Positions 1,301-3,857 are shown, counted from the stretch's first letter. The stretch: DNA of 24,000 nt from Thiogranum longum (GCF_004339085.1 NZ_SMFX01000001.1:733227-757226), one strand, 5' to 3'. A program made the numbers and translations. The notes: a model not told the origin generated them from the sequence alone.

Positions 1301-1705
1301 ATGAGAAGAGACGTCTTCAGCAAGTCCGCTGTACCGATACTTGTTCTAATCGGCATTTTCTTTTTTCCGGCCCTGGCTTTCCAGGTACATGCTGAAGGCA
1401 CATCTCAGGCAGTTACCCTGACGCTCGGGGACTACCGTTTCGACCCGGACAGCATTGAAGTCCAGTCCAGCCAGCCGGTTATCCTGACCTTGATTAACAA
1501 GGATGGCATCACCCCACATAACTTTACTCTGCAGGATACGGCAGCCGGACTGGATATCGACATCAATGTGAGCGCCGGCTCGACATCTATGGTCGAATTT
1601 ACCCCTGAAAAACCGGGGACCTACACGTTTTACTGCGCCAAAAAACTGCCCTTCATGAAGAGCCATCGCGCTCGTGGCATGGAAGGAACCCTGATTGTCA
1701 GGTAA
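1301..1705 (+). CDS. Secreted cupredoxin-fold (type-1-copper-like) protein.
   Basis: GGAGG lies 6 nt upstream of ATG 1301. The signal peptide is MRRDVFSKSAVPILVLIGIFFFPALAFQVHA. Candidate Cu ligands are His (ITPHNF), Cys (FYCAKK), His (KSHRARG) and Met (GMEGTL) near the C-terminus. Confidence 0.8.
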   Translation: MRRDVFSKSAVPILVLIGIFFFPALAFQVHAEGTSQAVTLTLGDYRFDPDSIEVQSSQPVILTLINKDGITPHNFTLQDTAAGLDIDINVSAGSTSMVEFTPEKPGTYTFYCAKKLPFMKSHRARGMEGTLIVR

Positions 1706-1728
1706 TGGCCAGACAAGGATAAAAGTGA

Positions 1729-3198
1729 GTGAGGGTTTTACTCGTATCTGCTAACAGGGAGCATATCCCGGACCCGATTTTTCCGCTCGGCCTTGCCTAT
1801 ATCGCGACGGCAGTTCGACAGGCAGGCTACCAGGTAGCCGTTACGGACCTCTGCTTCGGCAGTCGGCCAATACATGCGCTGCAACAGAAGATTCGAACCT
1901 TCAAACCGGACGTCATTGGTTTGTCGCTGCGCAATGTCGATAATGCCGCCTACCCGCTGACGGTTGACTACCTGGCCCTGCACCGGGAAGTTATTGATGC
2001 GATACGTGATATCACTCCCGCAATGGTCGTACTCGGGGGTTCTGGTTTTTCGATTTTACCCGAGGCCTATATGCAGGTACTTGATGCAGATTTCGGCATC
2101 AAGGGTGAAGGTGAACAGGCCTTTGTCACATTACTCGATGCACTGGATAGTAATCATGACCCGGGTATTGTACCCGGCGTCCTGGCTCGAAAGCACGACC
2201 ATGCAAACGGTATACACGTTCAAACTCCCGTGAAGACGGATACAAATCAAGGCGATGGGCTGCGGCCGGCACGCCACCTGTTTGATTATGCCCGTTACGT
2301 GCGTCGTGGCGGCACTGGCAACATCCAGACCAAACGCGGCTGCATATTTAAATGCAACTACTGCACCTACCCGTTACTGGAAGGCAACCGGTTCCGTGTA
2401 CGTGACGCCCGTGATGTCGTTGACGAAATCGAGGAGCTGTTACTCAAGTATGGCCCACACCCTGTCTTCTTTGTTGATTCCATCCTGAACTTCCCGCGCG
2501 GTCATGTCGAAGGCATTTGCGAGGAAATCCTGCGGCGCAAACTGAACGTCAGATGGAGTTGTTACGCCACGCCCGTTAAGCTCGACAGGCGACAGGCGCA
2601 ACTCATGGCACAGGCCGGTTGCGAGGGTATTGAACTTGGCACCGATGCCGTGGATAACGACCAACTCAAGCGGCTGGGTAAATCATTTGATGCCGCTACC
2701 GTCGTTCGTGCCAACCAATATTGTCTTGATGCTGGGCTGCGTGTTTGCCACACACTTATATTTGGCGGTCCCGGTGAAACAGAATCCAGTATTCGAAATA
2801 CCTGTCACGCCCTGCGAGAAATGCGGCCAACGGCGGTGGTTGCCATGACAGGTGTACGCGTTTATCCGGGTACACCACTGGCCGGGCAGTTGATTTCCAC
2901 CGGAAAAATGACTGGCAGCGACATCGGACTCACCCCGGCGTTCTATATTGAACCCGCTATTGCGGACTTCCTGCCCGCCTACCTGCAACAGCAGGCACGA
3001 GAGGCAGGTAACTGGGTGTTGCCAGGCATGGAGCCACCGTTACTGCCGATCAGCCAGCGCATCCTGCGGTCATTGGGCGTATCTGGTCCGTTGTGGCGCC
3101 TGCTGCGTTATTCCTGGATGCGCCAGATCAGCCGCAGCAAATTTCGACGCCCCACGACAAGTTGGGGTATTCCTGGCCTACGGAGGAGATTGTTATGA
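1729..3198 (+). CDS. B12-binding-domain radical SAM enzyme; substrate unknown.
   Basis: GTG start lies 23 nt after the cupredoxin stop. The N-terminal Rossmann/B12-like part is MRVLLVSANREHIPDPIFPLGLAYIA...PDVIGLSLRN...VVLGGSG. The radical-SAM cluster motif CxxxCxxC is seen in TKRGCIFKCNYCTYP. Length is 489 aa. Confidence 0.9.
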   Translation: MRVLLVSANREHIPDPIFPLGLAYIATAVRQAGYQVAVTDLCFGSRPIHALQQKIRTFKPDVIGLSLRNVDNAAYPLTVDYLALHREVIDAIRDITPAMVVLGGSGFSILPEAYMQVLDADFGIKGEGEQAFVTLLDALDSNHDPGIVPGVLARKHDHANGIHVQTPVKTDTNQGDGLRPARHLFDYARYVRRGGTGNIQTKRGCIFKCNYCTYPLLEGNRFRVRDARDVVDEIEELLLKYGPHPVFFVDSILNFPRGHVEGICEEILRRKLNVRWSCYATPVKLDRRQAQLMAQAGCEGIELGTDAVDNDQLKRLGKSFDAATVVRANQYCLDAGLRVCHTLIFGGPGETESSIRNTCHALREMRPTAVVAMTGVRVYPGTPLAGQLISTGKMTGSDIGLTPAFYIEPAIADFLPAYLQQQAREAGNWVLPGMEPPLLPISQRILRSLGVSGPLWRLLRYSWMRQISRSKFRRPTTSWGIPGLRRRLL

Positions 3199-3857
3199 AC
3201 CTGCAACATAGAAAAGAGAATTCCGATTACCGGGCAGCAATGGGTCAGCTACTGGTGCTATACACCCAGGTTGACCGTCTGATTATGGAAGCCTGTGCAG
3301 AACGTATCGCAAGCGCACCGGATGAAGCGGCCAGGCTGGGACTGGCCAAACAGGTCGGTGATGAATCCCGGCACGTAAACATACAGCGCGAATGGATGGA
3401 AAAGTTCGGCTCCCGCCAGGCGCCCATTATTTCAAAACAGCAGGAAGCAACTATCCTGGGTCATTTCCGGCATCTTGACTGGCGAGACTTCCTGACAGAC
3501 ATGTACCTGTGTGTCGAAGCGCTGGGCAGTGATGCGGTCGAACAGGTTGTGCCGCTCGCCGATCCCGGCACGAAAGAATCATTGCGCATTCCGCTGCTGG
3601 ACGAGCTTGATCACATCGCCTTTGGCGTGAATCGCCTGAAACAAGAGCTGTCACACATGGCCCCCGCTGAACGCGAGGCTTTCCTCGGCCGCCTACCGGA
3701 ACGCATCCAGACGCTGAACCGGTCTTTCCATGCTATGGGACTGAATCTAAAGGCCTTGTTTGAAGCTGTCGGTGCAGACTATGACGAGCTGTGCAAATCG
3801 GTACTGCAGCGCAAGGATGAAGTTCTGAAAGAAGTATCGGAACCGCTTGTGGCCTGA
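3195..3857 (+). CDS. Ferritin-like diiron-carboxylate protein; function unknown.
   Basis: ATG 3195 overlaps the rSAM stop (ATGA) and is preceded by GGAGGA. The E...ExxH ligand pattern is duplicated: MEACAE...GDESRH and CVEALG...LDELDH. The tracked start at 3093 would overlap the rSAM gene by 100 nt and has no RBS. Confidence 0.8.
   Translation: MNLQHRKENSDYRAAMGQLLVLYTQVDRLIMEACAERIASAPDEAARLGLAKQVGDESRHVNIQREWMEKFGSRQAPIISKQQEATILGHFRHLDWRDFLTDMYLCVEALGSDAVEQVVPLADPGTKESLRIPLLDELDHIAFGVNRLKQELSHMAPAEREAFLGRLPERIQTLNRSFHAMGLNLKALFEAVGADYDELCKSVLQRKDEVLKEVSEPLVA

Follow-up and report, generated by a model that had tools for sequence, protein, structure and literature searches.

A cobalamin-type radical-SAM gene translationally coupled to a predicted diiron oxygenase gene in sulfur- and iron-oxidising bacteria: a possible module for tailoring a hydrophobic small molecule

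A 24,000-nt stretch of the Thiogranum longum genome (NZ_SMFX01000001.1:733227-757226), called the window here, was analysed, and the features of the locus are listed in Table 1. The cupredoxin, radical-SAM (rSAM) and diiron genes follow one another on the same strand, the first two 23 nt apart and the last two overlapping by ATGA, as the original prediction for this DNA had placed them. The rSAM gene has a GTG start with AAGGA 10 nt upstream, and its TGA stop codon (3196-3198) is overlapped by the ATG of the diiron gene.

Table 1. Features of the locus in window coordinates
Feature	Position (nt)	Strand	Basis
SRPBCC/START-like ligand-binding ORF, divergent from the operon	637-1221	-	Pfam Polyketide_cyc
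Sec-type type-1 cupredoxin (predicted), 134 aa	1301 (or 1280)-1705	+	ORF call
Spacer, 23 nt, with AAGGA ribosome-binding site	1706-1728	+	read from sequence
B12-binding radical-SAM enzyme (rSAM), 489 aa	1729-3198	+	Pfam, NCBIfam
Ferritin-fold diiron-carboxylate protein (predicted), 220 aa	3195-3857	+	AlphaFold2, Foldseek, residue conservation

The SRPBCC gene had been missed in the original prediction. Its 150-aa ORF matched Pfam Polyketide_cyc (PF03364) with 25 bits against a gathering threshold of 23.4, and an in-frame TGA at 769-771 interrupts the gene. The window sequence is 65% identical over 195 aa to a 233-aa homologue, the TGA falls at a conserved Trp position, and the truncated form was called in an independent assembly too; judging from the sequence, the window copy is probably a pseudogene. 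An intact homologue at another locus (L002) scored 43 bits to PF03364. SRPBCC genes are frequent fourth members of the module. At most gammaproteobacterial loci they lie upstream and divergent; at one distant locus (L064) the SRPBCC gene comes after the pair, in the order rSAM-diiron-SRPBCC on one strand. The SRPBCC N-terminus is hydrophobic, and the gammaproteobacterial protein looks exported.

The first gene of the operon encodes a predicted exported type-1 (blue-copper-like) protein, which is expected to bind copper. It matched Cupredoxin_1 (PF13473) with 57.9 bits against a cutoff of 27 and Copper-bind with 30.7 bits, and the nearest PDB sequences were the T1Cu domains of NirK and plastocyanin. 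The His/Cys/His/Met ligand set proposed earlier was borne out, and the sequence fits the predicted Sec signal. N-termini were hydrophobic in all homologues, with the signal-like segment of the window protein, as read from the sequence, ending in VHA before EG, and the His (TPHNF), Cys, His and Met ligands were invariant in 20 homologues.

The rSAM protein has the architecture of a class B, cobalamin-dependent enzyme, with an N-terminal Rossmann-type B12-binding domain and a TIM-barrel core carrying CxxxCxxC, in agreement with the earlier description. Pfam B12-binding (PF02310, 65.6 bits) and Radical_SAM (PF04055, 69.3 bits) were matched, and the cluster motif C205-x3-C209-x2-C212 was invariant in 96 relatives. 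By these features it is a class B enzyme, predicted to bind cobalamin, which may transfer a methyl group from SAM. Profile-HMM classification had been suggested as a check, and the protein scored far under the cutoffs for BchE (109.7 bits vs 481), HpnR (94.7 vs 650), HpnJ (85.5 vs 578), TsrM (TIGR04428, 195.7 vs 500) and BzaD (TIGR04385, 241.1 vs 450). It did reach one named family, NCBIfam TIGR04072, scoring 381.3 bits, just over the cutoff of 360, across model positions 1-441 of 443; a Leptospirillum-type homologue (L006) scored 376 bits. TIGR04072 (rSAM_ladder_B12, "lipid biosynthesis B12-binding/radical SAM protein") owes its name solely to gene context, and we know of no characterised member. 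It is the proposed ladderane-cluster rSAM of anammox bacteria. The window protein shares its domain architecture with this family, is 39-44% identical to TIGR04072 relatives from fatty-acid-synthase-like clusters, and has the motifs RN[LV]DNAAY and N[IV]QTKRGC in common with them.

The relationship to these relatives was examined in a neighbour-joining tree of the 96 rSAMs, midpoint-rooted, with no outgroup and no support values. Every diiron-linked rSAM fell in one clade of this tree, in which a single subclade was without the diiron gene. The 39-44%-identical relatives form other clades (loci L111-L148) and are embedded with two KAS, a FabG-like SDR, ACP, hotdog-fold proteins and GT2. The metagenomes that yielded these fatty-acid-synthase-type loci were from sediment, groundwater and the like, and the diiron gene was found at 0 of 35 of the loci. 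ACP, KAS and FabG/FabZ-like genes, on the other hand, were found neither in the window nor at any diiron-linked locus; in this clade, the rSAM gene is followed by a putative diiron oxygenase gene and accompanied by SRPBCC and cupredoxin genes. On this topology, the window rSAM is in a sister clade, apart from the fatty-acid-synthase-type members of TIGR04072 and outside the naming context of the family.

The AlphaFold2 model of the rSAM protein (pLDDT 82.5) was closest in Foldseek to TsrM, a tryptophan 2-C-methyltransferase (6WTE/6WTF, TM 0.81, E 6e-31), and also matched OxsB and TokK. TsrM was also its best solved-structure sequence match (phmmer E 2e-46), and among characterised proteins TsrM and BzaD are nearest to it by HMM. 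The conserved R68 aligns with the lower-axial Arg of TsrM (R69). However, Glu273, which caps the cluster in TsrM and blocks SAM binding to it, aligns with I252, a position occupied by Ile or Val throughout the 96 relatives. TsrM Glu236 aligns with Y214, an invariant Tyr, and TokK and Mmp10 likewise have a hydrophobic or aromatic residue at this position. The Fe-S site is uncapped in the model, and because of the Glu273 to Ile and Glu236 to Tyr replacements, ordinary radical chemistry is expected, unlike in TsrM. Together with the invariant CxxxCxxC and the kept lower-axial Arg, these replacements point to a radical-competent, methylase-like enzyme.

The diiron protein fits no curated family by sequence. 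The only Pfam matches were sub-threshold, to DUF455 (PF04305, 20.2 bits vs 34.3), AurF and Ald_deCOase. Assignment to the aldehyde-deformylating oxygenase (ADO) family by Ald_deCOase (PF11266) was rejected at 15.4 bits against a gathering threshold of 28, this family giving only sub-threshold matches in 22 of 31 members; MiaE_2 (PF13794) was rejected likewise, with only sub-threshold matches in 19 of the 31. Among the 25 families matched by the largest numbers of members, COQ7 (PF03232) was absent at E <= 1 across all 31, and no AcsF-type family was among the Pfam matches listed. The Foldseek search suggested earlier was run on the predicted structure (pLDDT 92, eight helices) and gave ADOs as the top matches (TM 0.72-0.76, E 2e-4). 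A profile of the family also matched ADO 5K52 (E 7e-5), in an alignment that places E108 and E137xxH140 on ADO ligands, and the two proteins are alike in size. On the other hand, identity to ADO is 15-19%, the first ligand is Asp rather than Glu, and the partner is an rSAM enzyme instead of an acyl-ACP reductase. The ADO resemblance may reflect only a shared minimal eight-helix diiron fold.

The predicted metal ligands are D27, E57, H60, E108, E137 and H140, giving four carboxylates and two His (D/E...ExxH twice) on a four-helix core, and the helix positions in the model fit this assignment. The duplicated E...ExxH signature described earlier was found in most of its parts, E57xxH60 and E108...E137xxH140 being conserved; its first carboxylate is D27, probably miscounted as E32, which is Q or R in some homologues. 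D27, E57, H60, E108 and E137 were invariant, and H140 was invariant in the gammaproteobacterial family. In 4 of 6 distant full-length homologues aligned, including all three rSAM-linked ones (the Leptospirillum-type proteins and that of L064), this second His ligand is Gln, suggesting that the metal site may differ between phyla. The protein is a predicted diiron oxygenase, which would bind two Fe (or Mn/Fe) and use O2.

The cupredoxin-rSAM-diiron order recurs in about 30 independent gammaproteobacterial loci, and of the 43 gammaproteobacterial loci where the rSAM and diiron genes occur together, 42 keep the 4-nt ATGA overlap. With the diiron gene as anchor, 24 of 50 genome loci had rSAM followed by diiron; with the rSAM gene as anchor, 15 of 33 gammaproteobacterial metagenome loci did. 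A cupredoxin-free rSAM-diiron pair was also found in the Nitrospirota, in Leptospirillum ferriphilum ML-04 and other Leptospirillum-like contigs, and in one unplaced lineage, the diiron proteins there being 28-36% and the rSAM proteins 44-51% identical to those of the window. The module had been predicted to be uncharacterised, and this stands: the rSAM lies in no characterised clade, and the adjacency is not unique to this genome. The three genes as a unit did not hold up equally well, because the conserved core is the rSAM-diiron pair and each enzyme often occurs without the other. The diiron gene had no adjacent rSAM gene in 26 of the 50 loci, and the rSAM gene had no adjacent diiron gene in 18 of the 33 gammaproteobacterial loci, indicating that neither strictly needs the other in cis. 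Since the pair also occurs in Leptospirillum without the cupredoxin, the sequence comparison indicates that the pair is an ancient cross-phylum core and the cupredoxin a gammaproteobacterial addition. The module is real and vertically conserved in many sulfur- and iron-oxidising bacteria, usually behind a predicted secreted cupredoxin.

The two enzymes could be neighbours by descent only, serving unrelated processes. Each gene does stand alone in many genomes, and the lone diiron gene sits beside unrelated housekeeping genes (trhP, prfC, leuA). Nevertheless, the pair stays adjacent between phyla at such low protein identity, and even where every flanking gene has changed, and it conserves the ATGA overlap, so we consider the absence of any functional relationship very unlikely. 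Translational coupling would also suit a 1:1 stoichiometry in which the diiron protein helps the rSAM enzyme in aerobes, by scavenging O2 or peroxide, or by donating or repairing iron or electrons for the O2-labile cluster. A diiron partner was indeed found only in the clade from aerobic chemolithoautotrophs and was absent from the fatty-acid-synthase-type clade. However, the model of the diiron protein also matched the substrate-oxidising diiron enzymes PaaA, R2lox and RNR-R2 besides ADO, and did not match rubrerythrin, bacterioferritin or Dps, and the diiron gene is common without an adjacent rSAM gene. Such a helper role is extremely improbable.

The original prediction had seen a paradox in the coupling of an O2-sensitive to an O2-activating enzyme. 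This was overstated, because the pair is kept in Leptospirillum, which are obligate aerobes, and because B12-rSAM enzymes such as hopanoid methylases work in aerobes. The same contrast raises the question of whether the two enzymes are alternatives for one oxidation, the rSAM enzyme O2-independent and the diiron enzyme O2-dependent, like BchE/AcsF or HemN/HemF. The "either, or both" distribution (diiron alone at 26 loci, rSAM alone at 18, together at about 40) resembles that of BchE and AcsF, also a cobalamin rSAM and a diiron-carboxylate enzyme with possibly the same substrate class, and the fatty-acid-synthase-type sister clade is never found with a diiron partner. Alternative isoenzymes are normally under opposite O2 regulation, but the overlap forces co-expression of the window pair, which is translationally coupled instead of separately regulated, and the obligately aerobic Leptospirillum keeps both genes. 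Moreover, the solitary cases may have the partner elsewhere in the genome (the two split forms have similar GC content), and the rSAM is far closer to methyltransferases than to BchE. That B12-rSAM enzymes can do O2-free oxidations has a precedent in BchE (PMC13598231), yet we regard isofunctional alternatives as distinctly unlikely.

The most tightly rSAM-linked gene in Gammaproteobacteria is the cupredoxin, which lies directly upstream (0-23 nt) in 19 of 21 complete genome loci and stays beside the rSAM gene in the subclade without diiron and SRPBCC genes. The usual layout of a precursor and its maturase is a small protein gene followed by an rSAM gene, and the statement that there was no precursor-like small ORF overlooked this protein as a potential substrate. 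The rSAM enzyme might C-methylate or otherwise modify a residue of the cupredoxin precursor, perhaps within the Cys-His loop NKKLPFMKS, ahead of Sec export, as Mmp10 and MgmA act on methyl-coenzyme M reductase. The ligand stretch in the 20 homologues, YC[NAD]KKLPFMKSHRxRGM, corresponds to C-x9-H-x4-M, in which the invariant C-x9-H loop is unusually long for a type-1 site, and MgmA was the second-best structural match of the rSAM model. On the other hand, no cupredoxin gene adjoins the pair in Nitrospirota or at seven or more gammaproteobacterial loci, the 44-51% rSAM identity between phyla argues for one shared substrate, and scores to protein- and RiPP-methylase families were low (about 79 bits). 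The cupredoxin is therefore an improbable substrate, with little more than an outside chance.

The reading we favour, tentatively and at somewhat less than an even chance, is that the rSAM and diiron proteins are separable enzymes that both tailor the same hydrophobic small molecule, which would be membrane-associated and lipid or quinone-like. They would work consecutively in the cytoplasm, either being dispensable, and their substrate could be a fatty-acyl lipid or else a prenylated aromatic, for instance a quinone. The rSAM enzyme would bind SAM at its open [4Fe-4S] site and use methylcobalamin and a 5'-deoxyadenosyl radical to methylate a substrate carbon or form another C-C bond; the diiron enzyme, presumably in a second step, would hydroxylate, desaturate or cleave that molecule with O2 and two electrons, and the SRPBCC protein would bind the product. 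The periplasmic cupredoxin would be a co-expressed accessory part. A hydrophobic substrate is suggested because the nearest rSAM relatives lie in lipid-type clusters, because ADO and R2lox, the best structural relatives of the diiron protein, bind long acyl chains, because the SRPBCC partner is a hydrophobic-ligand binder, and because ACP, KAS, CMAS-like methyltransferase, PLD-like and DedA genes surround the cupredoxin and rSAM genes of one lineage. In the furan fatty-acid pathway, the UfaM methylase and then the O2-dependent UfaO act on phospholipid acyl chains. This serves as a working analogy only: there, too, the tail of a membrane lipid is first methylated and then oxidised with O2, and either step can be omitted. 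The enzymes come from unrelated families, UfaM being a class-I methyltransferase and the oxidases also of another kind, and no homology is claimed. Against lipid tailoring, the closest characterised relatives, TsrM and BzaD, act on small molecules, whose aromatic sp2 carbons they methylate. The separability of the two genes speaks against the favoured reading, a cytoplasmic lipid pathway gives no obvious role to the periplasmic cupredoxin despite its tight linkage, and both the possible metal-site change (H140 to Gln) between phyla and a likeness to ADO that may be one of fold only weaken the tailoring reading.

The aromatic preference of TsrM and BzaD would suit a narrower role in quinone or aromatic-cofactor tailoring, with the rSAM enzyme as ring C-methyltransferase, the diiron enzyme as ring hydroxylase (a functional Coq7 analogue) and a Coq10-like SRPBCC protein, acting on a prenylated benzoquinone: methyl-plastoquinone in Nitrospirota, ubiquinone or a variant in sulfur oxidisers. 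The SRPBCC partner matches PF03364, the Pfam family that contains Coq10. A diiron homologue of 33% identity (P0133, at L008) has a gene that overlaps one for a methyltransferase of the UbiE/MenG/MpqE family (TIGR01934, 157 bits vs a cutoff of 158); however, this is a single locus, and P0133 has Gln for the second His. At L063 a UbiH-like flavoprotein is encoded three genes away from the pair, and L064 has shikimate-pathway genes nearby. In Leptospirillum, a published cluster has the order mpqA-mpqC-(cobalamin rSAM methyltransferase LFE_2124)-mpqE, and its authors state that the C1 hydroxylase of the methyl-plastoquinone pathway is unresolved (Elling et al. 2025, PMC11874023). LFE_2124 may belong to the diiron-linked clade. 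Nevertheless, the Leptospirillum pairs examined do not adjoin mpqA, mpqC or mpqE, COQ7 was not among the Pfam families listed, the nearest rSAM sequence relatives are in fatty-acid-synthase-like and not quinone clusters, and the gammaproteobacterial SRPBCC looks exported. Quinone tailoring is on balance unlikely. A more specific version, in which the pair accounts for missing steps in the making of high-potential quinones, is more doubtful still: the ADO-like protein would be a new type of quinone-ring hydroxylase, acting at C1 in the methyl-plastoquinone pathway of Nitrospirota and as a Coq7 analogue, the TsrM-like protein would methylate the ring, and gammaproteobacterial sulfur oxidisers would make a modified benzoquinone working with the periplasmic cupredoxin.

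The module is an interesting lead, with a function proposed from sequence and structural models. The anammox bacteria, the best-known hosts of TIGR04072, are hard to work with. The window clade is the closest relative of the TIGR04072 lipid/ladderane group and is present in cultured bacteria, so it may offer a tractable entry point to that chemistry, through Thiogranum longum, Leptospirillum ferriphilum ML-04, which has the pair, and MAGs assigned to Sulfuricaulis, which carry the cupredoxin-rSAM-diiron trio. The rSAM would be the first cobalamin radical-SAM enzyme translationally coupled to a predicted O2-activating diiron enzyme, a coupling relevant to the way aerobes combine radical with oxygen chemistry. 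Should the substrate prove to be a quinone or a chemolithoautotroph membrane lipid, the reaction could yield a new biomarker or respiratory cofactor.

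The original prediction of three co-directional ORFs was borne out by the sequence, with a 23-nt gap between the cupredoxin and radical-SAM (rSAM) genes and an ATGA stop/start overlap between the rSAM and diiron genes. The diiron protein was identical (100%) to DFR30_0738 of Thiogranum longum. The three-gene operon stood, and a fourth part that had been left out, an SRPBCC gene, was found divergently upstream. This gene carries an in-frame TGA (769-771) where homologues carry Trp (RVEWALDD), and its in-frame similarity to homologues extends to ~637 and decays beyond. Gene calls in an independent Logan assembly from this organism likewise gave the truncated form. 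Judged by its sequence, the window SRPBCC gene is probably a pseudogene, so the strain may run the module without this protein.

Features of the operon and of its surroundings in the window
Feature	Position	Strand	Remarks
SRPBCC/START-type protein gene	637-1221 (ORF to stop: 769-1221)	-	Pfam; hydrophobic N-terminus; divergently upstream of trio; probable pseudogene
Cupredoxin	1301-1705	+	Pfam Cupredoxin_1, 57.9 bits
Radical-SAM enzyme	1729-3198	+	GTG start, AAGGA 10 nt 5′; Pfam B12-binding 65.6 bits, Radical_SAM 69.3 bits
Ferritin-like (diiron) protein	3195-3857	+	sole Pfam match DUF455, sub-threshold
TPR-Methyltransf_24 gene	4112-5167	-	convergent to operon
trpB	5582-6790	+	broken by in-frame TAA 6464-6466 (GFEC*SLQDDNG) into 291 + 84 aa
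DsrC/TusE-like gene	6900-7271		adjoins RuBisCO cluster
cbbX	7679-8620	-	form-I RuBisCO cluster
cbbS	8735-9169	-	form-I RuBisCO cluster
cbbL	9190-10671	-	form-I RuBisCO cluster
cbbR	10887-11777		LysR-type; divergent from RuBisCO cluster

The remaining window genes, including trpB, DsrC-like, cbbX, cbbS, cbbL, cbbR, msrB, msrA, ppc, glgA, and zwf, serve housekeeping and autotrophy, and none of them belongs to a pathway for lipids or cofactors. An Rfam scan of the window returned zero RNA elements and thus no B12 riboswitch, and a promoter/terminator consensus scan gave a site count not above that of shuffled sequence. The TPR-Methyltransf_24 gene was not counted in the module because it was absent from the first related loci checked (0/62), and its product is probably unrelated. 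The RuBisCO region as a whole spans 6900-11777. The trpB split was likewise called in an independent assembly (L159), at a position where E. coli TrpB has Tyr; for an organism that lives by obligate autotrophy the split is odd, unless its genome has another trpB.

Neighbourhood conservation was assessed in a diiron-anchored set of one genome per species (52 true loci, 50 informative) and in a rSAM-anchored set of 80 metagenome loci. The 52 loci were nearly all from Gammaproteobacteria (Thiogranum, Sulfuricaulis, Sulfurifustaceae, Ca. Muproteobacteria, and Thiotrichales). The rSAM gene was immediately 5′ of the diiron gene in 24 of the 50 informative loci; the cupredoxin gene was present too in 19/21 loci with complete upstream sequence, and a divergent SRPBCC gene in most of the rSAM-diiron loci. 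The ATGA overlap was retained in 42 of 43 gammaproteobacterial rSAM-diiron pairs, and the genes flanking the module were entirely different from locus to locus. The diiron gene was found without rSAM in 26 of the 50 loci, in four arrangements: directly adjoining the SRPBCC gene (L010, L018); at Sulfurifustaceae-type sites (L037, L038) without the whole SRPBCC-cupredoxin-rSAM block and otherwise syntenic with L031; by trhP and ahead of a Methyltransf_24 gene, at low-GC loci of the Thiotrichales type; and after prfC. Among gammaproteobacterial-tier rSAM loci, the diiron gene was downstream in 15 and not in 18. These 18 were almost all in one subclade of the rSAM tree, and most still had the cupredoxin gene upstream. 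These results indicate a conserved, uncharacterised module, as predicted, but the trio is not the conserved unit.

Nine low-GC Thiotrichales-type loci (L041, L045, L046, L048, L050, L052, L054, L057, and L060) have a lone diiron gene divergent from trhP, which encodes a prephenate-dependent tRNA U34 hydroxylase (724 bits), usually with a gene for a 199-aa Methyltransf_24 protein after the diiron gene. A lead to tRNA hydroxylation was rejected, being confined to this one low-GC lineage. The GC content of the cupredoxin-rSAM-only loci is similar to that of these lone-diiron genomes, and the two module halves may be unlinked within one lineage. In one cupredoxin-rSAM lineage (L149-L158, e.g. L149:9563-12907), a 218-aa polytopic membrane protein without Pfam match is encoded directly 3′ of rSAM, followed by a convergent gene for a CMD(AhpD-like)-Rieske fusion protein. 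A reading of the 218-aa ORF as a divergent form of the diiron protein was rejected (hhalign probability 0.1), and the ORF is confined to one species.

The window rSAM scored 381.3 bits against TIGR04072 (curated cutoff 360) and far under the NCBIfam cutoffs of BzaD, TsrM, PhpK, BchE, HpnR, HpnJ, and AprD4. It lies outside these characterised families and is a marginal member of a named, uncharacterised one. TIGR04072 bears the name "lipid biosynthesis B12-binding/radical SAM protein"; a part in making ladderane lipids has been proposed for it but never demonstrated, and its reaction is still given as unknown in reviews up to 2026. Literature searches on TIGR04072, the three-part combination, and DUF455 found nothing relevant. 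The 39-44%-identical rSAMs (L111-L148) lie in fatty-acid-synthase-type clusters with two KAS, a FabG-like SDR, ACP, 4HBT and FabA-like hotdog proteins, and GT2 (Pfam), and none of 35 such loci had a diiron, cupredoxin or SRPBCC neighbour. In a midpoint-rooted neighbour-joining tree of 96 rSAMs, drawn without outgroup or support values, the diiron-linked rSAMs of Nitrospirota and Gammaproteobacteria formed one clade apart from these. The separate clade and different neighbours suggest that the window rSAM belongs to a subfamily that is sister to TIGR04072 proper and has other partners.

The AlphaFold2 model of the rSAM (pLDDT 82.5) was closest in fold to TsrM (TM 0.81, E 6e-31), and its likeness to MgmA, AprD4, OxsB, and TokK was clearly weaker. 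Residues of TsrM to which a 2026 review draws attention were located in a HMMER alignment and in the 96 rSAM relatives. The lower-axial Arg69 of TsrM corresponds to conserved R68 of the window rSAM (motif RN[VL]DNAAY), whereas Glu273, whose capping of the unique iron renders TsrM non-radical (2026 review), is replaced by Ile/Val, and Glu236 by an invariant Tyr, in the window rSAM and relatives. TokK and Mmp10 have a hydrophobic or aromatic residue at the Glu236 position. From these three positions, the cluster would be expected to bind SAM in the usual way and the enzyme to work by radical chemistry. The diiron-linked and fatty-acid-synthase-type clades alike conserve six cysteines besides CxxxCxxC (C42, C264, C278, C298, C332, and C340), which might form an auxiliary metal site.

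The diiron family is narrow, with 67 representatives matching at E <= 1e-3 among 1.84 billion proteins clustered at 50% identity, about eight of them full-length. A tblastn search of the protein against plasmids found no plasmid copy. D27, E57, H60, E108, and E137 are invariant across homologues, and H140 does not vary within the gammaproteobacterial family but is Gln in four distant homologues. In the AlphaFold2 model (pLDDT 92, eight helices), the helix boundaries predict pairing of D27 with E57xxH60 and of E108 with E137xxH140. The best fold matches were cyanobacterial aldehyde-deformylating oxygenases (ADO, TM 0.72-0.76), then a Sulfolobus PaaA-like protein, followed by R2lox, PaaA, and RNR-R2. 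At the sequence level, too, the family profile matched ADO (E 7e-5), and the ligands of the second half aligned. All Pfam relations were sub-threshold (DUF455, Ald_deCOase, AurF, and MiaE_2), and COQ7 was not among the Pfam matches listed for family members. The fold, profile and Pfam results thus place the protein, still unclassified, among the diiron enzymes that oxidise substrates and not with ferritin or rubrerythrin-type proteins; a role as a protective helper is very improbable. The UniRef label "MiaE-like" is not supported, with MiaE_2 sub-threshold and no MiaE structure named in the top 50 fold matches.

Outside Gammaproteobacteria, distant diiron homologues (28-36% identity) were encoded directly 3′ of 44-51%-identical rSAMs. 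The carriers were Leptospirillum ferriphilum ML-04 (L067), the Leptospirillum-like contigs L006, L063, L068, and L110, and an unplaced lineage (L064) in which the pair is followed by an SRPBCC gene of like orientation. The gap was 23-91 nt, and no cupredoxin gene was there. Two distant homologues were not rSAM-linked: one gene (L008) overlaps a UbiE/MenG/MpqE-family methyltransferase gene, and the other has no B12-rSAM adjacent. Four distant homologues (P0132, P0137, P0141, and P0133, from L006, L063, L064, and L008) carry ExxQ in place of the second ExxH (DEKRQT and similar), and their metal site may be altered or heterobimetallic; three of the four retain rSAM linkage. L006, L066 and L067 share the order RmuC, holin-like gene, rSAM, diiron gene, cobalamin-type TP_methylases, ribE, ribD, glyS, so that the pair lies amid cobalamin- and riboflavin-biosynthesis genes. 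The MAG proteins of L006 carry the label "Leptospirales bacterium", which names a spirochaete order and was probably confused with Leptospirillales.

The adjacency across phyla, the flank turnover and the conserved overlap speak for a common target of the rSAM and the diiron protein, and the absence of any functional link is quite improbable. The fatty-acid-synthase-cluster kin of the rSAM, the ADO/R2lox-like fold, the SRPBCC partner and the lipid-flavoured surroundings of the L149-L158 lineage (ACP, KAS, CMAS-like methyltransferase, PLD-like, and DedA genes) suggest that the substrate is hydrophobic, and the separability of the two genes fits optional tailoring steps. On these grounds, our tentative preference is for two successive tailoring steps on a single lipid-like molecule, in which the rSAM would perform methylation or C-C chemistry and the diiron enzyme an O2-dependent oxidation. 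Tailoring of a quinone or aromatic compound by the pair is unlikely; in its favour are the affinity of the rSAM to TsrM and BzaD, the UbiE-family coupling, the match of the SRPBCC partner to PF03364, and a cobalamin rSAM (LFE_2124, a candidate member of the diiron-linked clade) reported in the Leptospirillum methyl-plastoquinone cluster, a pathway with a hydroxylase left unresolved (Elling et al., PMC11874023). It is unlikely that the two enzymes are isofunctional alternatives, O2-independent and O2-dependent respectively, because their co-expression is forced and both genes are present in Leptospirillum. The supposed paradox of an O2-sensitive beside an O2-activating enzyme was overstated. 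The predicted periplasmic cupredoxin is the least explained part of the module: its gene is the one most tightly linked to rSAM in Gammaproteobacteria, and it is absent from the ancestral rSAM-diiron pair. That it is a protein substrate of the rSAM seems a slim prospect. The module is built from known enzyme kinds in a conserved, previously uncharacterised combination.
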